From sequence record NC_005859.1: DNA of 64,000 nt; one strand, given 5' to 3'. This DNA comes from Escherichia phage T5. The notes below the pieces were generated by a model that searched no databases, had not been told where the DNA came from, and was given only the letters and a program-made list of their open reading frames with translations. The translations under genes were made by a program, and so were the position numbers. Positions 13,207-37,301 of the stretch are shown in pieces. The stretch's first letter is position 1. Every line of letters starts with the position of its first letter.

Positions 13207-13747
13207 TATTTATCTCCATTCTTAGCTTTGAAAACTTATTATACCAAACTATATGATTATCGTCAATTACAAATTTATGGTAACATGCTGGTACGGTATA
13301 AGTTCCATAATCCGTGACACGCTGCACAACCTTGTGTGCGCACAGTCGACATCCATGACCCTCTAAATGAGATCTAGCAGTTTGCCAGTAATAACCCTCA
13401 TGGTCTGGACAATAAATCTCTACTTGTTGCTGCATTGTTTTATAGTTTACACGCTCATACCCAAAGAAAGCCCCGTGAGCTGCAATAGCTTTCTTGATAA
13501 ATATAAGGTTTAGCGCTTCTTGTTGAAAGTCGGGGTGTAGTTGCTTAATCTTAGTTCTATTAATAGATCCATCCGATTTGATGAACCTATTTATTGGAAA
13601 GTTGTTAGCTTCCTCGATTAATAGTTCATTTACTTTCTCTCTCATATTAGATACTCTCACAGTTAAGGTAGAAACATTCGTAAACATCTCCAGTAAACTC
13701 TTTATCTTGTAGTAAACACTTAGCTTGGTCTTCCGGTACTCCAGCAT
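13199..13747 (-). CDS. hypothetical Cys/His-containing protein
   Basis: 182-aa ORF (true start may be internal, e.g. 13645); HGCRLCAH motif. Confidence 0.5.
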   Translation of the reverse strand: MLEYRKTKLSVYYKIKSLLEMFTNVSTLTVRVSNMREKVNELLIEEANNFPINRFIKSDGSINRTKIKQLHPDFQQEALNLIFIKKAIAAHGAFFGYERVNYKTMQQQVEIYCPDHEGYYWQTARSHLEGHGCRLCAHKVVQRVTDYGTYTVPACYHKFVIDDNHIVWYNKFSKLRMEINSE

Positions 13748-13850
13748 CTAATAATTGTTGTTTACTTGGCTTTTCAGCGAATACTTTTACAAAATACTCA
13801 CCATCCTGATTATACTCATTTATATCTCTGGTAAGGACATATACTTGCAT
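13647..13850 (-). CDS. hypothetical protein
   Basis: 67-aa ORF. Confidence 0.4.
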   Translation of the reverse strand: MQVYVLTRDINEYNQDGEYFVKVFAEKPSKQQLLDAGVPEDQAKCLLQDKEFTGDVYECFYLNCESI

Positions 13851-13870
13851 TTGAAGTTCCTTGAAAACAT

Positions 13871-13900
13871 AAAAGGCCAGAACAATTAAGTCCTGGCCTC
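13871..13900 (-). terminator. intrinsic terminator
   Basis: stem GGCCAG...CTGGCC with U-tract on minus strand (plus AAAA at 13871-13874). Confidence 0.55.
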
Positions 13901-13906
13901 CTAAAA

Positions 13907-14344
13907 TTAATGAAGTTGTTTACCACTTCGTAACATAGTGGCCGTTTCCATAAGACCTAGCGTAGTATCACGCTTATTGATCTGTTTACCAAGTTCATCG
14001 GTACGTTTACCAATGTAAGCGTTAATAGCCATATTCATAGCTGTAGCGAGATCTTCTTTGGTTATCTCTTCATCATCTAAAGCTAATTTAGCCAAAGAAT
14101 CAAATGTGCTAGAGAGTCCTATAAGATCTGAGGTTTCTCCAGCCAAAATAGGATTAATATTATCTACTGTTACTTCTAGCATGGAGTTGACAATATCTTC
14201 ACCATCTATTAGACCAGTTTCAATATTACTCTCCCACTCCTTCATCTGCTCCAATAATGGATTTTTCTTTTCTGTCATGGTAGAGGTTTCCTGTGTCAGT
14301 CGGTAAGAAGGATGATTGCGTTTTAGGTGGATGTTGCTTAGCAA
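13907..14344 (-). CDS. hypothetical acidic protein
   Basis: 145-aa ORF; start may be internal. Confidence 0.5.
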   Translation of the reverse strand: MLSNIHLKRNHPSYRLTQETSTMTEKKNPLLEQMKEWESNIETGLIDGEDIVNSMLEVTVDNINPILAGETSDLIGLSSTFDSLAKLALDDEEITKEDLATAMNMAINAYIGKRTDELGKQINKRDTTLGLMETATMLRSGKQLH

Positions 14345-14687
14345 TCCAGTTAAGAATCAGCACGCGACTAGGAACAATATCGGTGTTATACCAAAAATCG
14401 TGAACCCATTGACGAGCATCTTCAAACTTACCAAATTTATATGCTTTCTTAAACAATTCAAATCCAAAACAATCTGGTGTAAAGTCTACTTCGCGATATT
14501 GAATTACTTTAGAACCAGTTAGGTCTTGGATCGCTGCATTAATTTCTGTATGCGAGAATTTTGTTTCATGAAACTTATTAAAGAATCGGTAGTTGAAGCG
14601 TCCGTTCGTTTCGACAAATAACTGGATGAAGAGATCGTTAAATTGGTTATCAAACCAGTAATTTTGTAGTTGTTGTAGTGCTGTCAT
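14226..14687 (-). CDS. hypothetical protein
   Basis: 153-aa ORF. Confidence 0.5.
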   Translation of the reverse strand: MTALQQLQNYWFDNQFNDLFIQLFVETNGRFNYRFFNKFHETKFSHTEINAAIQDLTGSKVIQYREVDFTPDCFGFELFKKAYKFGKFEDARQWVHDFWYNTDIVPSRVLILNWIAKQHPPKTQSSFLPTDTGNLYHDRKEKSIIGADEGVGE

Positions 14688-29176: not shown

Positions 29177-29252
29177 TGGAGCGGCTAGAGGGAATCGAAC
29201 CCTACTCAGCGAGGCTTGGAAGGCCTGCGACACAACCCGTGTGCTTAACCGC
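29177..29252 (-). tRNA. tRNA-Gly (anticodon UCC)
   Basis: CCA encoded; anticodon loop CTTCCAA; acceptor stem 7 bp with one GU. Confidence 0.65.
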
Positions 29253-29259
29253 GATTATT

Positions 29260-29337
29260 TGGCAGGGGATATTGGATTTGAACCAATGATCTCGACTTCA
29301 AAGGCCGAAGCTTTAGGCCAAGCTAAGCTAATCCCCA
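29260..29337 (-). tRNA. tRNA-Gln (anticodon UUG)
   Basis: CCA encoded; anticodon loop CTTTGAA; perfect T-stem. Confidence 0.6.
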
Positions 29338-29343
29338 ATTGTT

Positions 29344-29419
29344 TGGCAGAAGGTAGTGGGTTCGAACCACGATCAGTGGTTTCAGAGATCCCAGCCTTAA
29401 CCGACTTGGCTAACCTTCT
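29344..29419 (-). tRNA. tRNA, anticodon arm atypical (possibly Gln-CUG)
   Basis: perfect acceptor stem AGAAGGT/ACCTTCT, D-stem AGCC/GGCT, T-loop TTCGAAC, CCA encoded; only 3/5 pairs in best anticodon stem. Confidence 0.4.
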
Positions 29420-29978
29420 TCTTAATACTTTTTGGATCTTTACCTGTTAAGGATTTATAACGTTTACGTAGTCCGTTATCAGATAATCCTAACTCTTTTG
29501 ATGCTTTAACCCATGAATAGTTTATTACCCAATATTCTATTTGCTCTGCTGTAATATCAGGGCTACTCTTAGGTTTACAATCAAAACAAGTTTTAGATGA
29601 AGAATTTATTTGTTTATTACAGTAAGGGCATTTATTACCACCTATTGTATGTCCTCTTTCAACTGTAGTTTTTATTCTATGATCTTGCTTGGTCATGACT
29701 ACTAGATTATCTAAGGAAAAATTCAATTTATTCCTATCTTTGTGATCCACTTCTAGCTCAGATTCTAGTGAAGGTAAATCTTTAAATACTCTAGCTAGTA
29801 ATCTATGTAATACGATAGAGACATTCTTGCCCTGTTCATAGAATGTTACAAACGGATATCCTGCACTACCTAAATGATGTGTGAGTAATTTATTACTCTT
29901 GGTAGAGTAAACTTCTCCATATGGAGAGATTAAGTATTCGGGATATTCCGGAATTACTTTGAAATTTTCTAATTTCAT
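29397..29978 (-). CDS. HNH homing endonuclease
   Basis: 193 aa; HNH core EVDHKDRNKLNFSLDNLVVMTKQDH plus C-terminal Zn-ribbon/HTH tail; 3' end overlaps adjacent tRNA. Confidence 0.8.
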   Translation of the reverse strand: MKLENFKVIPEYPEYLISPYGEVYSTKSNKLLTHHLGSAGYPFVTFYEQGKNVSIVLHRLLARVFKDLPSLESELEVDHKDRNKLNFSLDNLVVMTKQDHRIKTTVERGHTIGGNKCPYCNKQINSSSKTCFDCKPKSSPDITAEQIEYWVINYSWVKASKELGLSDNGLRKRYKSLTGKDPKSIKKKVSQVG

Positions 29979-29979
29979 C

Positions 29980-30180
29980 TTATTCTACAGGAACCGTGGC
30001 GATTGGCTCAGGTTCTTCAAGGCGCTTACCTTCATGATCTACTCGAATGACTCCGCATCCTTCGCAAACCACAACTGCACCATAACCTTCTTTGACTTCG
30101 GCTTCTGTAATCAGACCAGATAAGTCACCAGTATCTCTGCCCCACATATCAATGGAGCATTGTTTGCAGAAATCAGCCAT
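29980..30180 (-). CDS. zinc-ribbon small protein
   Basis: 66 aa; CxxC...CxxC. Confidence 0.45.
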   Translation of the reverse strand: MADFCKQCSIDMWGRDTGDLSGLITEAEVKEGYGAVVVCEGCGVIRVDHEGKRLEEPEPIATVPVE

Positions 30181-30205
30181 ATTTTATTTCCTATTTAAGT
30201 TAATT

Positions 30206-30282
30206 TGGGGTGGCTAGTGGAATTCGAATCCACATAGGCCTGATTCACAATCAGGATCATTAACCAATTATGATATAGCCAC
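30206..30282 (-). tRNA. tRNA-His (anticodon GUG)
   Basis: CCA encoded; discriminator C; anticodon loop TTGTGAA; perfect anticodon and T stems. Confidence 0.75.
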
Positions 30283-30511
30283 AATTGAAAACTCGCAGGG
30301 TTAGCGAAACCATCCTCAATTAGCATGTTCTAGAATACTAATCAAGTTATCTCCTATTGCACGCAGCTCAAGACGAGTACGAATTTTCAATTGTGGCGGC
30401 TCTCAGAAACTCTTCTATTCTAGCCCCAGAAGCTTACCCCCGAACGCATGTCGGGAAAGTCTTTCCAAGCGCATCAAATAGCACCGTTACACTTTGAGCC
30501 ATTGATATATC

Positions 30512-30596
30512 AAGGAACAGAAGGAGTTGAACCTTCACGAGATAGACCATTTATCTCAACCGCTTTTAAGGTATATTTCTAGGAGCGGATGTTCCT
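30512..30596 (-). ncRNA. tRNA-like structured RNA (non-canonical)
   Basis: perfect acceptor-like helix AGGAACA/TGTTCCT and T-arm GAAGG/TTCAACT/CCTTC, but internal region folds as two hairpins instead of D and anticodon arms; no CCA. Confidence 0.3.
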
Positions 30597-30844
30597 AGTA
30601 AACCTATTCGGCAGTCCCGTCTACCAATTCCGGCATATTCCAAGAATTTTTTATAAACCAGCAGAAGCCTCATTTAAAGCATCAACAATAGCTTCACGCT
30701 GGGTCATTCCATACCCAGTGGAGTCTAGGTGAGGCAAATAGGCTGCCCATCCATTATCTGTTTCATGAAGGCATGCTTTAAATTTTTTACCGTCCTTCAT
30801 TGTTACAGTAACTGTTTTGCTCATAAGGATTCCTTATAGTTAAT

Positions 30845-30934
30845 TGGAGGAAGGTAATGGAGTCGAACCATCACCGTATCACTACAGCGGGCTAGTTTTC
30901 AAGACTAGTTGCGTACCACTACGCCCTACCTTCC
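30845..30934 (-). tRNA. tRNA-Ser (anticodon UGA), class II
   Basis: 90 nt with long variable arm; anticodon stem-loop ACTAG/CTTGAAA/CTAGT; CCA encoded. Confidence 0.65.
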
Positions 30935-30941
30935 ATTTGTT

Positions 30942-31035
30942 TGGCGGAAAAGATGGGAGTTGAACCCATAAGGCAATATTGCTATTACTCAACCGATTTC
31001 CAATCGGGTTTAGTCGCCAGTCTATTTGCTTTTCC
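30942..31035 (-). tRNA. tRNA-Ser (anticodon GGA), class II
   Basis: ~94 nt; anticodon loop TTGGAAA; CCA encoded; 5' end overlaps stop of HNH gene 31022..31606. Confidence 0.55.
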
Positions 31036-31606
31036 GTTGTTCTGTTAATACTTTTGGGCTTAATCCAGTTAGTTTAGTATACCTCCTGCGCAAAGTGGAC
31101 TCTGATACTTCTAACTCTTTAGCTGCCTTAACCCACCCCATTAATAAAACCTTTTCAGTTATGTCGTCTAAAGACAATTCTGGTTTTATCAACCTTCCTG
31201 TAGGTTTTGGCTTACAATTTGTACATGTTACAGATCTCTGAAGCATTAGACTCCCACATAGGGGGCAAGGTACTCTACTGTCAGACCACCCATTATCTTT
31301 ATTAGTTTTCCTCTGATGTTCTATTTTTGATAGGACTTGAAGATTATCTTTAGATAGATTCAGTCTATCTCTATCCTTATGATCTACCTCTAATTCAGGG
31401 TCAAATAGATTATATAAGTCCCCAAATACATGAGAAATAATTCGGTGTATAAGTACAGAGGTTTGTTTACCATTTATCTGTAATTTTACAGCAGGGTATC
31501 CATCAACTATATATCTTGATAAAACTTTATTAGTAAATGTAGAGAACACATCCCCCGCCTCATTTACTAAATACCCTGGTGCATCTTTTATTGGTACAAA
31601 CTGCAT
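31022..31606 (-). CDS. HNH homing endonuclease
   Basis: 194 aa; paralog of 29397..29978 (same HNH core and C-terminal tail); 3' end overlaps tRNA-Ser. Confidence 0.8.
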   Translation of the reverse strand: MQFVPIKDAPGYLVNEAGDVFSTFTNKVLSRYIVDGYPAVKLQINGKQTSVLIHRIISHVFGDLYNLFDPELEVDHKDRDRLNLSKDNLQVLSKIEHQRKTNKDNGWSDSRVPCPLCGSLMLQRSVTCTNCKPKPTGRLIKPELSLDDITEKVLLMGWVKAAKELEVSESTLRRRYTKLTGLSPKVLTEQRKSK

Positions 31607-31623
31607 ACATAAATCCTATGAGT

Positions 31624-31708
31624 TGGTGGGGCTAGGGAGACTCGAACTCCCACGCATTTAAGCTACGGAATCTAAGGCCGTATTGTCTACCAGTTCCAGC
31701 ATAGCCCC
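31624..31708 (-). tRNA. tRNA-Leu (anticodon UAG), class II
   Basis: 85 nt; perfect T-stem; anticodon loop CTTAGAT; CCA encoded. Confidence 0.6.
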
Positions 31709-31713
31709 GAATT

Positions 31714-31789
31714 TGGTGGACAAAGAGGGACTCGAACCCTCCCTACCAGATTGCAAGTCTGGTGTGCTCCCGCTGACACTATTCGCCCA
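31714..31789 (-). tRNA. tRNA-Ala (anticodon UGC)
   Basis: anticodon loop CTTGCAA with perfect stem; acceptor stem carries the G3:U70 Ala identity pair; CCA encoded. Confidence 0.75.
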
Positions 31790-32026
31790 AATTATTTAGT
31801 TTACTAAGGCTATTAGCTCGGCGTAACTACAGCACCTTCGCTTCAAGCGGAAGGAACCGCGTCATCTCGCAAACCCAATACACTATTCAGTTGCCGCTGA
31901 ATCTAGTGGACTAATCTAGAACTTCTCCCAAATCGTAGGGATCGTGCTTTTTGGCAGCCAGTCCTAGGTCGAGCTAATACCTTAGTGAACTATGATGGGG
32001 ATTTCTCCTCATCAATTTATATAAAT

Positions 32027-32055
32027 ATTATAACAAGAAATTAAGCATTAAGCAA
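32027..32055 (-). promoter_or_regulatory. T5-type early promoter
   Basis: minus-strand TTGCTT-N17-TATAAT; no ORF for ~230 nt downstream (31800-32020). Confidence 0.65.
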
Positions 32056-32080
32056 CTGCGTTTTTGAAATTTCTTGGACT

Positions 32081-32154
32081 TGGTACTCGGTGATAGAATC
32101 GAACTATCACAACCGCCGTGTAAAGGCGGGGTTCTCCCATTATACTAACCGAGC
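32081..32154 (-). tRNA. tRNA-Val (anticodon UAC)
   Basis: anticodon stem-loop CCGCC/TTTACAC/GGCGG perfect; CCA encoded. Confidence 0.7.
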
Positions 32155-32161
32155 AAAAATT

Positions 32162-32239
32162 TGGTGGGTTGCACAGGACTCGAACCTGTAACCTATGGTT
32201 TAAAAGACCAGTGCTCTAAACCAGTTGAGCTAGCAACCC
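32162..32239 (-). tRNA. tRNA-Lys (anticodon UUU)
   Basis: anticodon loop CTTTTAA; perfect acceptor and T stems; CCA encoded. Confidence 0.65.
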
Positions 32240-32427
32240 TTAGTAACCATTATATACTTCTTTAATAGTATGGACTTTCAAATAAAGGTGATTAGTACTA
32301 AACTCCGCCATTACTTCTTTTTCATTTTTTCCATAATGTGCAAGTAAGGATTTTGATGTATTCTTACCTAAACGTTTGTCACTTACTACTAATCGAAATA
32401 CTTTCATTTCGAAATCCTCTATTAAAA

Positions 32428-32505
32428 TGGAAGCGGGTGCAGGAATCGAACCTACCTCTTTCTAGCTTATGAGACTAGCGATCTCTACCAGAGATCTAAC
32501 CCGCA
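32428..32505 (-). tRNA. tRNA-Met (anticodon CAU)
   Basis: anticodon loop CTCATAA; 1:72 position unpaired (U/U); CCA encoded. Confidence 0.6.
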
Positions 32506-32511
32506 ATTGTT

Positions 32512-32588
32512 TGGTCTCCAATGAAGGACTCGAACCTTCAACCCCACCGCCCCAAACGGTGTACTCTAGCCAATTGAGCTAATCGGAG
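32512..32588 (-). tRNA. tRNA-Pro (anticodon UGG)
   Basis: anticodon stem-loop CACCG/TTTGGGG/CGGTG perfect; G37; CCA encoded. Confidence 0.7.
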
Positions 32589-32783
32589 AAAATTATTTCT
32601 TCAGCCACAACATGCTTAATCCTAGCATTGTAAAGCCTGTACTTAATCCTATTACCTTTTCTATCATAGAAAAGTTATCTATGTTAAATCCTACTATTAC
32701 TATAGGGATAACCCAAGTACACATGAATACTGATGCAATTTTATACTTCACTTAGCTTTCCTTCTCTTCACTTTATAAGATAT

Positions 32784-32812
32784 ATTATACAGAGAATTAA
32801 GCATAATAGCAA
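32784..32812 (-). promoter_or_regulatory. T5-type early promoter
   Basis: minus-strand TTGCTA-N17-TATAAT. Confidence 0.65.
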
Positions 32813-33204
32813 CTACATTTTTCATAAATTTACTTATTGTGTAGGCCACCTGGAGGCTACCAACCCCACGGCTGACAAAGAAGTTTGCGAGACTTCTCTT
32901 AAAAGCCAGAATAGACCCGCCGATCTATCGGAACCTACATAATAAGTAAACTTTATAGTGTCATCCTAGACAGGATTCGAACCTGCTATCACTTGTGCGG
33001 ACTTACGAGAACCATTCTTTCACTCGAATCGAACGAGCTTCTGCCCTCGCCAAGTTGGTTTCCCCATCAACCACGCTAGAATGTTAGATTGTTTTCAGTG
33101 CAAGAGTCCGAGTCTTGGACACGACCGCTTCGCAAGTACATAGGCAGCTTATCATGAGTCAGCACTTCCGAATTGCTAGCTCCGTGTTCTGCACTGAAAT
33201 TTTA

Positions 33205-33552
33205 TTAGTTTAACCGTAAAGTATTATCTACTTCACCATTAATTGTTCGGCACTCCTCTGGGATTGCCGGAGTGGCCTTGTATTCCCACCACTCAGCACC
33301 ATCATATTCCCCACGTTCTAGCCAAGTTCCGTCGGCAAACCATACATTACCATAAAGTAATTGTCCACCGTATCCAGAATCATATTCAAAGTCTAGGTTA
33401 TCAAGAAAATCCTCAATATCTTCTTCTGTATAACCTAAAGGTAATACCCAAACTTTTTTATCCCCATAATACCCGAATTCTATTTTAATACACTTAACTT
33501 CAGAATTAGTATTTTTTAAGGCAAGTAACAGCTCTTCTTTGGCATTACGCAT
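33205..33552 (-). CDS. hypothetical acidic protein
   Basis: ORF-track start 33639 lies inside tRNA-Asp; internal ATG at 33552 (MRNAKE) used. Confidence 0.45.
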   Translation of the reverse strand: MRNAKEELLLALKNTNSEVKCIKIEFGYYGDKKVWVLPLGYTEEDIEDFLDNLDFEYDSGYGGQLLYGNVWFADGTWLERGEYDGAEWWEYKATPAIPEECRTINGEVDNTLRLN

Positions 33553-33577
33553 AGTATATTCCCATACTGAATTAATT

Positions 33578-33654
33578 TGGCGCGACCGATGGGATTTGAA
33601 CCCACATTCTCTCCCGTGACAGGGGAGTACCATTACCAAGCCAGCCCCGGTCGC
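33578..33654 (-). tRNA. tRNA-Asp (anticodon GUC)
   Basis: anticodon stem-loop CTCCC/CTGTCAC/GGGAG perfect; perfect acceptor stem; CCA encoded. Confidence 0.75.
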
Positions 33655-33663
33655 ATAATTTAT

Positions 33664-33849
33664 TTACTCAGCTTTGAGTTTTTCAATAGCTGCATTAAGT
33701 TCTTTAAGAAACTCTTTTCGTACATTAAGACGATTGAGACTTACTAGTATATCATGTTTAAGCTCTTCGATGTATTTCTTCTCAACTTCAATATTGTTGA
33801 TAGTGCTATCACGATGAACTTCTAGCTGCGCAATCACATTCTTGGACAT
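33664..33849 (-). CDS. small coiled-coil protein
   Basis: 61-aa ORF. Confidence 0.4.
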   Translation of the reverse strand: MSKNVIAQLEVHRDSTINNIEVEKKYIEELKHDILVSLNRLNVRKEFLKELNAAIEKLKAE

Positions 33850-33951
33850 GCTTGTTTCCTCAGTTATTAATGAAAATGGTATCTGTGGCTGAATTCGATG
33901 TCAGCAATGATAGCTGGTTGGCTACCGGTTTACTTAACTCTACACAGAATT

Positions 33952-34029
33952 TGGCGGTTCCTGCTGGATTCGAACCAGCAACCCTCAACTTAACAAGATG
34001 CCGCTCTAACCAATTAGAGCTAAGGAACC
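33952..34029 (-). tRNA. tRNA-Asn (anticodon GUU)
   Basis: canonical loop TTGTTAA but anticodon stem has two mismatches; perfect acceptor and T stems; CCA encoded. Confidence 0.5.
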
Positions 34030-34524
34030 ATATAAGTCAGAACTAGAGTTAATACGTTCTAGATATTTACTAAGATCTCTAGAATTTATACTAAACCACT
34101 CATGTTCTTTTAAATCTTTGAAATACTGGTGAATTAGTTTTTCACCTTTTCGTTTGTCAAACCAAAAAGACCAATGCTCTAACTTATAATCCCTATAAGG
34201 GGAATAAGTCTGATATTGAGCTAATCTCTCCTTTGGATTTTGACTCATACCTATTTTATACTGATTTTTCCATGCAGGATTACTAATACAGTATACAAAA
34301 CCTTCAGAAATAGGAAGTTTATTTTCCTGCTTAAACTTTATAAAGGAAAGTGCAGCAAGTTTTCTCGAATACATAGTATTTGTATTCTTTTTGGTATTAC
34401 CATTGGTTCCTGAAAGATTTATATATACTTCCATAAATCTTTGGATTAGTTCTGCGGTTATATAGAAGGGCTCATTAGTAACAACGCCTTTCTTTACCAA
34501 ACTATCAAAAACTTTTGTATGCAC
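34006..34524 (-). CDS. T5orf172-domain protein (GIY-YIG-related)
   Basis: 172 aa; YCISNPAW..YKIGMS..P..R pattern recognised from memory as the T5orf172 domain; 3' end overlaps tRNA-Asn. Confidence 0.7.
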   Translation of the reverse strand: MHTKVFDSLVKKGVVTNEPFYITAELIQRFMEVYINLSGTNGNTKKNTNTMYSRKLAALSFIKFKQENKLPISEGFVYCISNPAWKNQYKIGMSQNPKERLAQYQTYSPYRDYKLEHWSFWFDKRKGEKLIHQYFKDLKEHEWFSINSRDLSKYLERINSSSDLYGSLALIG

Positions 34525-34545
34525 TACTTCTTTCCTTTAGTAATT

Positions 34546-34621
34546 TGGACGACCGCATGAGATTTGAACTCACATAAAAAGGATTTGCAATCCTTCGCCT
34601 AAGCCATTCAGCCAACGGTCG
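34546..34621 (-). tRNA. tRNA-Cys (anticodon GCA)
   Basis: anticodon stem-loop AAGGA/TTGCAAA/TCCTT perfect; CCA encoded. Confidence 0.7.
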
Positions 34622-34784
34622 ATTTATTATCTTTCATAATATGTAGCTACATGGTCGGAACCACAATTACCACACACTTTCTTACCTGTTTTAGAGTAGT
34701 AATCTTGATCACCACATTCATAACAGATACATAATTCTTTTTCTTGTTCTGTCATATTGCTTCTCCAGTTCAATTTATGTAATT

Positions 34785-34813
34785 ATTATATAGAACTTTT
34801 GGAAACTAAGCAA
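34785..34813 (-). promoter_or_regulatory. T5-type early promoter
   Basis: minus-strand TTGCTT-N17-TATAAT. Confidence 0.65.
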
Positions 34814-35093
34814 CTACATTTTTTAAGAATTTGATGCCTTTCTTTTTCTTCTTATATTTCCACGTTAATGGATTCTGTCGATTATAAACGCTTGAGATCT
34901 TTGTCTCGTCAAAGTTCTTCAATATCATGTAATCACAGGATAATTGTTCTAGTGGAATGTGGTCACCGCCAAAAGCGTATATATAAGGCCGTTGACTAAC
35001 ACGATAATGATAGACTTTGTTAATTCTACGTTTCAGCGATTTATCCGCACAGTAAATAAAGAAGTTTTCAGGATGCATCAGCATCTCCTTCAA
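34806..35093 (-). CDS. hypothetical protein
   Basis: 95-aa ORF. Confidence 0.45.
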   Translation of the reverse strand: MKEMLMHPENFFIYCADKSLKRRINKVYHYRVSQRPYIYAFGGDHIPLEQLSCDYMILKNFDETKISSVYNRQNPLTWKYKKKKKGIKFLKNVVA

Positions 35094-35095
35094 TT

Positions 35096-35170
35096 TGGTG
35101 CACCCTGTTCGAATTGAACGAACCTCTCAAGCTCTTCAGGCAAGCGCTAATCCATCTCAGCTAAAGGTGC
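35096..35170 (-). tRNA. tRNA-Phe (anticodon GAA)
   Basis: perfect T-stem and D-stem; anticodon loop CTGAAGA; anticodon stem has two U:U mismatches; CCA encoded. Confidence 0.5.
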
Positions 35171-35256
35171 AAATTTTGGCAGAGGTAAAGGTATTCGAAA
35201 CCTTTTCATGGGTTTTGGAGGCCCATTTGCAACCTATGCGTACCCCAATTGTTAAT

Positions 35257-35333
35257 TGGCGTCCTGTGTGGGGATCGAACCCGCAAACCCTACCTTGAAA
35301 GGGTAGTGACTTTACCAGTTTGTCTAACAGGAC
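35257..35333 (-). tRNA. tRNA-Glu (anticodon UUC)
   Basis: anticodon stem-loop CTACC/CTTTCAA/GGTAG perfect; perfect acceptor stem; CCA encoded. Confidence 0.75.
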
Positions 35334-35339
35334 TTAAAT

Positions 35340-35427
35340 TGGTAGGGGAGGATGGAGTCGAACCACCCGAGTCGCAATGACAACTAATTTACAGTCAGCT
35401 CTGCTACCACTTACAGAATACTCCCCC
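35340..35427 (-). tRNA. tRNA-Tyr (anticodon GUA), class II
   Basis: 88 nt; anticodon arm GCTGA/CTGTAAA/TTAGT; long variable arm; CCA encoded. Confidence 0.55.
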
Positions 35428-35551
35428 ATATTTGAATGAAAAGTAAGTCGGTTAAACTCAAGGTGGAATATTTCAGGATTTCCTGACTTTACCCCTCAAA
35501 GTAACTCGCTTAGTTACTTCTCATTCAGATATGTTTCCAAATTAGATAACT

Positions 35552-35580
35552 ATTATACCAAGTTTTAAGGCACTGAGCAA
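35552..35580 (-). promoter_or_regulatory. sigma70 promoter
   Basis: minus-strand TTGCTC-N17-TATAAT upstream of tRNA-Tyr/Glu/Phe group. Confidence 0.55.
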
Positions 35581-35616
35581 GTCAAATTTTGAAGAACTTG
35601 CTCAGTGCTGTATTAG

Positions 35617-35892
35617 TTAGTCGAACTTAGGAGTGACAGATAAGGAGAACGGAAGTTCAAAAACTTCTTCACCCTCATTACTAACAGTAACTACACGACC
35701 TTTAAGTTCAGACATTGAAATATCAATATCAGCTTTTGCATCTGGAGCCATGCCAGCTTCAACACATTTAGCTTTAACTTCCGGCAAGAGTTCTACATCG
35801 TAGAAATAAAGCCATTCAATCTCACCTTCCCAGCCTTCCCAGGATTTACAGATTGCACTTTCAATACCAGTTGCTACAACACTATTTTGCAT
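35617..35892 (-). CDS. hypothetical protein
   Basis: 91-aa ORF downstream of canonical promoter. Confidence 0.45.
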   Translation of the reverse strand: MQNSVVATGIESAICKSWEGWEGEIEWLYFYDVELLPEVKAKCVEAGMAPDAKADIDISMSELKGRVVTVSNEGEEVFELPFSLSVTPKFD

Positions 35893-35982
35893 TCGTTAAC
35901 TCCTTCATCAATTTATACAACTATTATATCAGAAATTTAAAGCAAAAGGCAAGTACATTTTTAAAAATTCTATTCGGAGGAG

Positions 35983-36189
35983 CTAAACTCCAGATTCTTC
36001 TGCCAAGTCTAGGCTAATAAGAGTTATAGCCATAATTGCTGCACCGTGTTCTTTTTCTCCGGTGTTTTTAGCAGAGTCTATAATATCCTTAATCTGTTCG
36101 TAATAACTTTTTACTTCTTGTTCAATGCCTGCCTCGGCTATCATGCCTTTAGCCATGAATCGTTGCATGGTAATTTCAGGATTAGCCAT
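35983..36189 (-). CDS. hypothetical protein
   Basis: 68-aa ORF. Confidence 0.4.
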   Translation of the reverse strand: MANPEITMQRFMAKGMIAEAGIEQEVKSYYEQIKDIIDSAKNTGEKEHGAAIMAITLISLDLAEESGV

Positions 36190-36378
36190 GTTGTTTCTCC
36201 AGTTTCATTTTTAATAGTTTACAGATGAAATCAACGTCTTCATCCGTGCCTAAGTCTCTATCCTCAAGGGTCGCCTTGAAGTTTTTCGTCAATTCCATGA
36301 GGATGACTTCCCTAGAACGACGTGTTGGGGGCGGAGGAGGTCTATACATCTTAATTCCTTAATTTGGTAGGAACTATA

Positions 36379-37062
36379 TCATCTATTTTTCTTAATACTT
36401 TTAGGATCTTTCCCCGTCAGGGACTTATACCTTTTCCTTAATCCAGTATCAGACAATCCTAGTTCTTTAGAGGCACGAATCCAGGAATATTTAGATACCC
36501 AGTACTCTATTTGCTCCACAGTAATATCTGGATTTATAGTTATCCCTTTAGGAGTACATGATTTACAGTGTGTTGCTCTTGAGCTAATTTCGCAGTGACA
36601 AATAGCACACGTATTTACAGTCCTTTCTGTATACCTGCCAATATTTTTGCCTGCATGAGTAGGCGTTAGTGCATGGCAATTTGGACATAGGAGGGCTAAG
36701 TTATCCCATTCATTATTATAGTGGTTTCCATCCTTGTGTTCGAGTTCTAAAGGAATTGGTTTGTCTAACCAACTTTCTAAGCCGCAACTCTCACACTTAT
36801 GTGGTTTTAGCCCCTCGTTAAGAATTTTATTCTTTAGTTTATAGGAAGAAATAGGGCTGCCGTTATATAAATATTCTGTTGCAGACTTATATTTATTATC
36901 ATACTGCCTATTCGTAGGAATAACTACTATTCCTAGTTTTCCTAAATATGCTTCCAAAGTGTTCGAGGAGCAGGATAGCATTCTTGCTATCTCTGCCTTA
37001 GATTTTCCCTGAGCTATCCACTGAGCTATTTCTTCCTTTCTATCTAGTATATCAGTTCTCAT
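36379..37062 (-). CDS. HNH endonuclease with N-terminal HTH
   Basis: 227 aa; LELEHKDGNHYNNEWDNLALLCPNCH HNH core, extra Cys clusters, C-terminal tail shared with other HNH paralogs. Confidence 0.75.
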   Translation of the reverse strand: MRTDILDRKEEIAQWIAQGKSKAEIARMLSCSSNTLEAYLGKLGIVVIPTNRQYDNKYKSATEYLYNGSPISSYKLKNKILNEGLKPHKCESCGLESWLDKPIPLELEHKDGNHYNNEWDNLALLCPNCHALTPTHAGKNIGRYTERTVNTCAICHCEISSRATHCKSCTPKGITINPDITVEQIEYWVSKYSWIRASKELGLSDTGLRKRYKSLTGKDPKSIKKNR

Positions 37063-37085
37063 AATTTATGACTTTCTACTTAAGT

Positions 37086-37163
37086 TGGTGGCTCCCCGAG
37101 GATTCGAACCTACGTACCTTCCAGTTATGAGCTGGGTGCTCATACCATATGAGCTTGAGAACC
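37086..37163 (-). tRNA. tRNA-Met (anticodon CAU), second copy
   Basis: anticodon loop CTCATAA; D-stem GCTC/GAGC; acceptor stem with two GU pairs; weak T-stem; CCA encoded. Confidence 0.55.
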
Positions 37164-37169
37164 AGAATT

Positions 37170-37258
37170 TGGCGGAAGAAGTGGGAATCGAACCCACAAG
37201 GCTATATTTCAAACCGACAGATTAGCAATCTGCTGCAATACCGTTATGCTATTCTTCC
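37170..37258 (-). tRNA. tRNA-Ser (anticodon GCU), class II
   Basis: 89 nt; perfect acceptor and T stems; anticodon loop TTGCTAA; CCA encoded. Confidence 0.65.
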
Positions 37259-37272
37259 GAATTTATAAATAT

Positions 37273-37301
37273 ATTATATTAGAAATTTAGCTTCATAGCA
37301 A
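37273..37301 (-). promoter_or_regulatory. T5-type early promoter
   Basis: minus-strand TTGCTA-N17-TATAAT upstream of tRNA-Ser/Met pair. Confidence 0.65.

Follow-up and report, generated by a model that had tools for sequence, protein, structure and literature searches.

RNA 2H of bacteriophage T5: a non-coding RNA with a predicted double-pseudoknot fold kept across T5-like phages

What is encoded by the roughly 230 nt that separate a promoter from the gene for tRNA-Ala in the tRNA region of bacteriophage T5, and to which no gene call is attached? An earlier note on the window (the whole 64,000-nt stretch of T5 DNA analysed here) had offered two readings, a long leader of the tRNA precursor or a separate small RNA. 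Read 5′ to 3′ on the minus strand, the order is tRNA-Val (32081–32154), the promoter, the segment without a gene call, tRNA-Ala and tRNA-Leu (31624–31708). An HNH homing endonuclease ORF of 194 aa (31022–31606, minus strand) lies directly after tRNA-Leu, and its 3′ end overlaps tRNA-Ser(gga) (30942–31035) by 14 nt. Stable RNAs other than tRNAs have been known from the tRNA clusters of T4 and T5 for about four decades; to our knowledge none has been assigned a function.

The segment encodes T5 RNA 2H, a discrete non-coding RNA. When 661 nt surrounding the site are used as a query, the match to AY692264.1 (T5 st0), in which record coordinates are those of the window plus 3, is 100% identical. 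This record annotates a misc_RNA of 172 nt (gene rna2H, product "RNA2H") at 31811–31982, corresponding to 31808–31979 of the window. The tRNA-region record of phage BF23, NC_042564, carries equivalent promoter P13b and RNA 2H features. It labels RNA1, RNA2 and RNA3 "tRNA-like" but RNA 2H "stable RNA with unknown functions", a statement found in the annotation only. These T5 and BF23 entries, from the Ksenzenko laboratory, describe the present gene: the sequence is identical, the place (between P13b and tRNA-Ala) is the same and the length is 172 nt. The existence of the gene is therefore already known from annotation. What is added to these records, and appears to be new, is the fold with its pseudoknots, the breadth of conservation and the proposed processing with its possible RNase III signature. 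Between the two readings offered earlier, the separate small RNA is upheld by the rna2H annotation and by a covarying fold conserved well beyond the needs of a disposable leader; the long pre-tRNA leader is not favoured. A literature search on RNA2H, T5 stable RNAs and the Ksenzenko papers did not find the primary description, so that the ends given in the annotation may have been predicted, not mapped.

A T5-type sigma-70 promoter, P13b, is located directly upstream of RNA 2H (Table 1). The position proposed in the earlier note agrees both with the sequence as read and with the feature "promoter P13b" annotated in T5 and BF23; in the T5 record this feature extends over 31991–32075 of the window. 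P13b is absent from the list produced by a simple consensus scan because its −35 hexamer matches TTGACA at only 3 of 6 positions. Transcription is predicted from the promoter spacing to start near 32020. The same layout, T5-type with an extended −10, precedes every RNA 2H homologue. The promoter part alone also recurs, at about 89% identity, in other Demerecviridae, and promoter-only BLAST matches in Klebsiella phages were rejected as homologues since the same promoter type is found there before a DNA ligase gene. The segment downstream of P13b is indeed free of ORFs, as had been claimed: there is none of at least 20 aa in any frame of either strand within 31800–32047, which alone is weak evidence, the genome being A+T-rich.

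In T5, about 30 nt including a small hairpin are inserted between the predicted start site and the RNA 2H core, and this hairpin is outside the annotated mature RNA. It is absent in three lineages (Klebsiella, Eos and Aeromonas). In Salmonella phage BD13 (locus L004, approximately 1543–1566) this small palindrome has been inverted in place, so that it and the T5 allele are exact reverse complements (TGATGGGGATTTCTCCTCATCA vs TGATGAGGAGAAATCCCCATCA). In seven loci (L008, 1535–1664; L009, L010, L026, L027, L053 and L057) an insert of about 95 nt has been substituted for its tip; this insert is found in both Tequintavirus and Epseptimavirus backgrounds, is predicted to form an extended branched hairpin (−28.9 kcal/mol) and has no other occurrence among the sequences examined. 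Since it can be absent, inverted or expanded, the leader hairpin is dispensable for the RNA 2H core. A scan of 31000–33000 for terminator-like sites (a G+C-rich hairpin followed by a U-run) revealed no intrinsic terminator on the transcribed strand; the sole site was the leader hairpin read on the opposite (plus) strand. On the RNA strand the hairpin is followed by AUAGUUCAC, which is not the arrangement of a terminator or attenuator leader.

Table 1. Features of the RNA 2H locus (coordinates of the window; nt, position in the RNA, where n = 31991 − window coordinate)
Feature	Window coordinates	Strand	RNA 2H nt	Remarks
Promoter P13b	32027–32055	−		−35 TTGCTT (32055–32050), 17-nt spacer, extended −10 TGTTATAAT (32035–32027)
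Optional 5′ leader hairpin	31993–32014	−		UGAUGAGGA-GAAA-UCCCCAUCA, between start site and core; predicted fold
RNA 2H core	31799–31990	−	1–192	192 nt; annotated mature RNA2H 31808–31979
P1, 5′ strand	31970–31990	−	1–21	annotated 5′ end U12 (31979)
P2, 5′ strand	31966–31969	−	22–25	ACCU; start of the 5′ "spine"
X1, spine segment	31960–31964	−	27–31	GGACU; pairs with P3a loop (pseudoknot PKa)
X2, spine segment	31953–31956	−	35–38	UGCC; pairs with P3 loop (pseudoknot PKb)
A-rich strand	31944–31952	−	39–47	AAAAAGCAC
P2b, peripheral hairpin	31926–31941	−	50–65	variable in length and sequence
P3a, hairpin	31902–31920	−	71–75/85–89	9-nt loop with Y1 AGUCC (nt 79–83, 31908–31912)
P3, hairpin	31886–31901	−	90–94/101–105	loop with Y2 GGCA (nt 96–99, 31892–31895)
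Joining strand	31867–31885	−	106–124	UAGUGUAUUGGGUUUGCGA; includes P2 3′ strand
P2, 3′ strand	31873–31876	−	115–118	GGGU
P4, long peripheral hairpin	31823–31866	−		two interchangeable sequence types; compensatory changes
P1, 3′ strand	31799–31820	−	171–192	bulged purine G181 (31810); annotated 3′ end C183 (31808)
Spacer and tRNA-Ala(UGC)	31714–31798	−		spacer 31789–31798 (10 nt), tRNA 31714–31788; next gene, same transcript

The earlier note had suggested secondary-structure prediction with covariation as a check, and both support a conserved, pseudoknotted fold. The transcribed strand folds with −82.6 kcal/mol against −56.2 ± 4.3 for dinucleotide shuffles (z = −6.2; none of 200 shuffles as good), figures which overstate significance because only about six independent lineages exist. 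A covariance model, R1, was built from an alignment (A1) of 26 distinct T5-like sequences and gives 228 bits for the T5 core and 27–89 bits for the distant lineages. On the reverse strand the score is 30 bits; this asymmetry and the G-U pairs identify the minus strand as the RNA strand. A further alignment obtained by model search (A3) was too ragged for pair counts and was left out of them.

The covariation points to an architecture kept in six Demerecviridae lineages, and the same ordered set of helices is found, with different sequences, in seven representatives. P1 consists of 21 pairs and one bulge in all lineages; 97% of cells are paired and 6 pairs have changed on both sides. In the Aeromonas lineage it is almost fully rewritten with pairing retained, and the bulge is an A. 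The bulge is placed at 181 because U12-A180 becomes A12-U180 in other lineages. The block UAAGG/GCCUUA around it is constant in the enterobacterial lineages, and AAGG/CCUU is retained in Aeromonas. In P2 (22–25/115–118) all cells are paired, against 11–54% in slid controls, and two of the four pairs covary: C23-G117 becomes U-A and C24-G116 becomes A-U, with single variants remaining paired via G-U. The two pseudoknot helices are short (4–6 bp). Five of the six pairs of PKa covary, with a series U-A, U-G, C-G within the Klebsiella clade, as do three of the five pairs of PKb, in which one metagenome variant (G97A) breaks a pair. Over P1, PKa and PKb combined, 92.9% of cells are paired and changes on both sides affect 14 of the 32 pairs; sliding the partners by 1–3 columns reduces pairing to 22–43%. 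A spine (nt 22–38) predicted to pair in turn with the distal strand (P2), the P3a loop (PKa) and the P3 loop (PKb) is thus supported.

The hairpins that present these loops differ in sequence from lineage to lineage and always retain complementarity. The P3a stems are UCUAG/CUAGA in T5, CGG/CCG in Klebsiella phages, GCGG/CCGC in Eos, ACGGA/UCCGU in the metagenome lineage and CUGG/CCAG in Aeromonas phages; those of P3 are, by lineage, UUCAG/CUGAA, ACGC/GCGU, AAGG/CCUU, AGGU/ACCU and CUCUG/CAGAG. Both loops carry U-N-R just 5′ of the paired bases, which we take to be a U-turn-like arrangement. The YUNR (U-turn) loops of antisense RNAs and anticodon loops similarly have a U followed by N-R. Because the RNA 2H loops covary with a partner inside the molecule, they do not serve to probe host RNAs by antisense pairing, and the core forms a tertiary fold complete in itself. 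In group II introns, too, two neighbouring strand segments are each bound by a separate hairpin loop (EBS1/EBS2 with IBS1/IBS2), as in the RNA 2H spine. The analogy is one of geometry only: RNA 2H has neither domain V/VI nor splice sites, and its loop partner is internal and covarying.

Several other pairings and motifs were considered and rejected. RNAalifold, run on T5-like sequences only, proposed a four-way junction with nested helices 24–31/68–75 and a "lower P3" 83–87/106–110, which are broken in all six non-T5 rows. As they hold only in T5-like rows, they were given up as the ancestral fold, for which PKa, P3a and the new P2 were preferred. Within the T5/Epseptimavirus lineage they are a possible alternative pairing, and A84G with U109C in phage JN-S202001 fits this alternative. 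A helix between CAC 45–47 and GUG 108–110 was dropped, one Aeromonas change supporting it and one variant contradicting it. The same applies to a K-turn at the base of P4, whose second strand is without a G-A pair, and to a mimic of a tRNA 3′ end in X2 (GCCA/ACCA), since Eos has AUCA.

The strands joining the core helices are nearly invariant. These are CAAAAARCAC, AGAAG and AGUGUA...UUUGYGA. The first has this form in the enterobacterial lineages and is AGAAAUUAC in Aeromonas; AGUGUA and UUUGYGA of the joining strand are invariant or nearly so in the enterobacterial lineages. The core stays invariant while the peripheral hairpins P2b and P4 vary in length and sequence and have been swapped between lineages. 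Epseptimavirus, Klebsiella and Aeromonas phages have longer hairpins in place of P2b, with the stem retained. Of the two P4 types, that of T5 is shared by Eos and that of Epseptimavirus by Klebsiella phages.

RNA 2H is present in a total of about 500 phage genomes. At least 80% of promoter plus RNA was recovered by blastn in 419 records of Tequintavirus and Epseptimavirus. To these are added 81 blastn records of Klebsiella Sugarlandvirus (65–68 bits with R1) and seven records from five phages of Aeromonas Shenzhenvirus (26.8 bits, E about 1e-6, filters off). Bacteriophage Eos (78 bits) and a metagenome lineage, L048 (89 bits), also carry homologues. L048 was the one new lineage from the metagenome scan, two further matches (L059 and L061) being chance hits, and pattern scans of IMG/VR returned only T5-like and Sugarland-like contigs. 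No blastn match was obtained in 5,426 complete E. coli genomes, so that no host RNA has been copied at the sequence level. Some annotators have placed "hypothetical protein" ORFs opposite the homologue (L042, 980–1168; L043, 1020–1196; L064, 281–415; all minus strand). Lineages do not share these ORFs, which are probably erroneous calls within the gene of a non-coding RNA.

Every homologue is immediately preceded by a T5-type promoter; P1 begins 2–4 nt after the predicted start site in the Klebsiella, Eos and Aeromonas lineages. With few exceptions, a tRNA gene follows directly, at 10 nt in T5 and at 4–5 nt in the other lineages. The identity of this neighbour varies: tRNA-Ala in T5, BF23, the Klebsiella phages and some Epseptimavirus loci, tRNA-Cys in JN-S202001, tRNA-Leu in L048 and tRNA-Tyr in the Aeromonas phages, of which AhSzq-1 has RNA 2H at the head of an 18-tRNA cluster. 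In fuchur and GEC_vB_N7 an ORF, not a tRNA gene, lies downstream. That the core is retained though its downstream neighbour differs (in fuchur, GEC_vB_N7, JN-S202001, the metagenome contig and the Aeromonas phages) speaks against the pre-tRNA leader proposed earlier.

RNA 2H belongs to no described RNA family. The covariance models of Rfam 15, applied to the 281-nt region at E ≤ 10, gave nothing but a 15-bit chance match to a snoRNA. No family was assigned to the RNA 2H segment in a search of the 15.5-kb tRNA region, and none matched three distant RNA 2H lineages. The models without a match include those for riboswitches, ribozymes, Y RNA/YrlA, 6S RNA, tmRNA, RNase P and GOLLD/ROOL. Neither ARAGORN nor the Rfam tRNA model finds a tRNA in 31795–32020, and RNA 2H is without a GTTCRANYC T-loop, whereas the small RNA rna2 has one. 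RNA 2H is no oddity of T5: it is a conserved, pseudoknotted RNA of phages infecting Escherichia, Salmonella, Klebsiella and Aeromonas which is absent from Rfam.

The closest parallels are likewise phage RNAs. Species 1 and 2 of T4 (rnaC and rnaD) are annotated as small stable RNAs and, like RNA 2H, are non-tRNA RNAs of a phage tRNA cluster; they adjoin a homing endonuclease gene. They are co-transcribed with the tRNAs, and we know of no function for them decades after their discovery. They lie at the end of their transcription unit, whereas RNA 2H is at the head, and they have tRNA-like 3′ domains, which RNA 2H does not. They were rejected as homologues: with filters off, the best R1 match in the T4 tRNA region is a short hairpin of 9.6 bits, located elsewhere than rnaC and rnaD. 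GOLLD and ROOL resemble RNA 2H in being phage-borne, close to tRNA genes and of elaborate conserved structure; we know of no function for these either. They are 500–800 nt long and included in Rfam, while RNA 2H is about 190 nt long and matches neither model.

How might the RNA be released from the transcript which it shares with tRNAs? The annotated ends, U12 and C183, are opposite each other, 11 bp into the 21-bp P1; next to the bulged G181, C182-C183 form a 3′ overhang of 2 nt. This looks like the geometry of an RNase III cut, and the length of P1 (21 bp with one bulge) is within the range of helices, of about 20 bp or more, that RNase III cleaves. RNase III would thus cut the polycistronic RNA 2H–tRNA transcript at the centre of P1 and excise RNA 2H. 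The 3′ side of RNA 2H would be freed with the help of RNase P, which cuts where the neighbouring tRNA begins. The product would owe its stability to a 5′ end that is fully paired and a 3′ end that is recessed. P13a lies upstream of RNA 2H with no annotated terminator between, so that RNA 2H would also be contained in longer read-through transcripts, for which an excision helix independent of context makes sense. In lineages where P1 begins almost at the start site, 5′ trimming is not strictly needed. P1 resembles known RNase III excision helices, such as the precursor stems of rRNA and the sites in T7 early mRNAs, in being a helix of about two turns formed by sequences that flank the product. 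It differs from them in that cleavage is predicted and that the invariant UAAGG/GCCUUA is more conservation than RNase III usually needs.

The gene can be lost under laboratory conditions. Two viable mutants, T5-123 (deletion 29191–32442) and T5Mos (deletion 30661–38625), whose deletions are described as non-essential (PMC11464382), both lack RNA 2H, which is therefore dispensable, or accessory. Both deletions also remove several other stable RNAs. The coordinates of that study match those of the window, since the tRNA content stated for its "Fragment 1" (31885–32870; tRNA-Pro, fMet, Lys and Val) agrees (PMC11464382). A fragment with tRNA-Lys(UUU), a gene located at 32162–32239 (minus strand) just upstream of P13b, is reported to rescue T5 deletion mutants from the PARIS defence (PMC11464382). 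No cloned fragment had an intact RNA 2H, so nothing follows from this about RNA 2H and PARIS.

On balance we lean towards RNA 2H being an excised, stable RNA which acts in trans. Once released and protected from exonucleases, it would act through its three-dimensional shape, most likely by binding tightly, as decoy or scaffold, either a protein of the host or the phage or a small ligand. Its function would be accessory, useful in nature and unneeded on laboratory E. coli. The invariant core, the free periphery and the changing neighbour argue for recognition of shape by a protein, by a ligand or, least likely, for catalysis. An accessory RNA that is almost universally kept in a hypervariable tRNA island would also have the profile of a host-interaction or counter-defence factor. 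What had been an ignored line of annotation is now a testable object, with specific helices, a predicted processing enzyme and existing viable deletion mutants.

The reading that competes best, though we judge it unlikely, is a cis-acting leader of the tRNA transcription unit which would work while attached to the transcript or to the polymerase, the stable species being a by-product. It might render RNA polymerase resistant to termination over the long untranslated tRNA cluster, as do put of HK022 and EAR of Bacillus, or it might be a processing platform that organises the cuts of RNase III and RNase P. A strictly promoter-proximal position in every lineage (the core starts 2–4 nt, or about 30 nt in T5, after the predicted start site), which put and EAR share, would suit the former, and the resemblance of P1 to a processing helix the latter. 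The place at the head of the 18-tRNA cluster of AhSzq-1 and the tRNA 4–10 nt downstream in most loci would suit a leader of either kind. However, the T5 tRNA region has many promoters and only P13b carries RNA 2H; two pseudoknots and invariant core strands are more than a processing signal would require; and RNA 2H is annotated as a stable species. No Rfam model matched, in a set which may or may not include put and EAR.

Returning to action in trans, a stronger form of it must be put more tentatively, and we consider it rather doubtful: that RNA 2H would be the first of a new class of phage RNAs, compact and with several pseudoknots, which serve as decoys or sponges against the host. Targets could be, for example, a nucleotide that signals in host immunity, or a nuclease or translation factor directed at tRNA or mRNA. 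If so, the tRNA islands of T5-like phages would contain an RNA-only anti-defence or host-takeover factor, and its mechanism would enlarge the means by which phages counter defences, beside the phage tRNAs known to neutralise PARIS and retron Eco7.

An RNA aptamer or sponge whose double-pseudoknot core sequesters a small molecule, such as a nucleotide second messenger of host immunity, is a special case of the trans-acting picture and shares in its probability; by itself we hold it to be improbable. The size, the pseudoknotted multi-helix core, the invariant joining strands and the variable peripheral hairpins do resemble large riboswitch aptamers, and the gene is accessory, as would suit such a role. 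Yet RNA 2H is similar to no Rfam riboswitch class and comes without an expression platform, a ligand candidate or a genetic link to a defence system.

All further readings are very improbable even when taken together. A self-cleaving ribozyme releasing RNA 2H from the tRNA precursor could account for a pseudoknotted core and for defined ends within a longer transcript, and the string UGAUGAG...GAAA in the 5′ hairpin superficially recalls a hammerhead core. The motif was dropped because GAAA is a hairpin loop, not a junction, and because the hairpin is optional, absent or different in other lineages. The hammerhead, twister, HDV-like, pistol and hatchet models give no match, and ends opposite each other in a duplex are the signature of a double-strand nuclease; we therefore see hardly any chance for this reading. 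There is just as little for a functionless spacer, a disposable pre-tRNA leader, a DNA-level element (palindrome or nuclease target) or a tiny peptide gene, since the long perfect inverted repeat comes with compensatory changes, G-U intermediates and loop-to-strand pairings that only selection on a minus-strand RNA explains, and the ORFs called over some homologues, on the opposite strand, are not conserved and have no counterpart of at least 20 aa in T5.

Other small RNAs and tRNA genes of the window also deserve mention. Five more small RNAs are annotated in T5 (RNA1, RNAI, RNAIII, RNAIV and rna2; window 30284–30644, 32838–32940 and 32959–33083, minus strand). The T-arm of rna2 is clear (CAGGTTCGAATCCTG). 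RNA1 gives a weak tRNA match (24 bits, 30512–30642), as might a tRNA carrying a long insert. RNAI has a GCCA end after a helix formed by its 5′ and 3′ termini, and RNAIII and RNAIV have terminal helices with 2-nt 3′ overhangs. Two tRNA genes were missed by ARAGORN. One is the annotated tRNA-Gly at 29180–29255 of the record (window 29177–29252, minus strand), for which Rfam gives only a 26.7-bit match to the tRNA-Sec model. The other, at 37089–37163 (minus strand), has a 38-bit Rfam tRNA match and adjoins tRNA-Ser(gct). Finally, in the BF23 record NC_042564 (L038), promoter P16-17 and tRNA-Arg enclose a 784-nt feature (13651–14434) annotated "RNAX, stable RNA with unknown functions". By synteny its equivalent is at about 40848–41631 of the window (minus strand), upstream of tRNA-Arg(tct) (40773–40847). 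ARAGORN calls a "tRNA-Ser anticodon act" at 41431–41504 (38 bits with the Rfam tRNA model), also upstream of tRNA-Arg(tct), and RNAX may thus embed a tRNA-like element.
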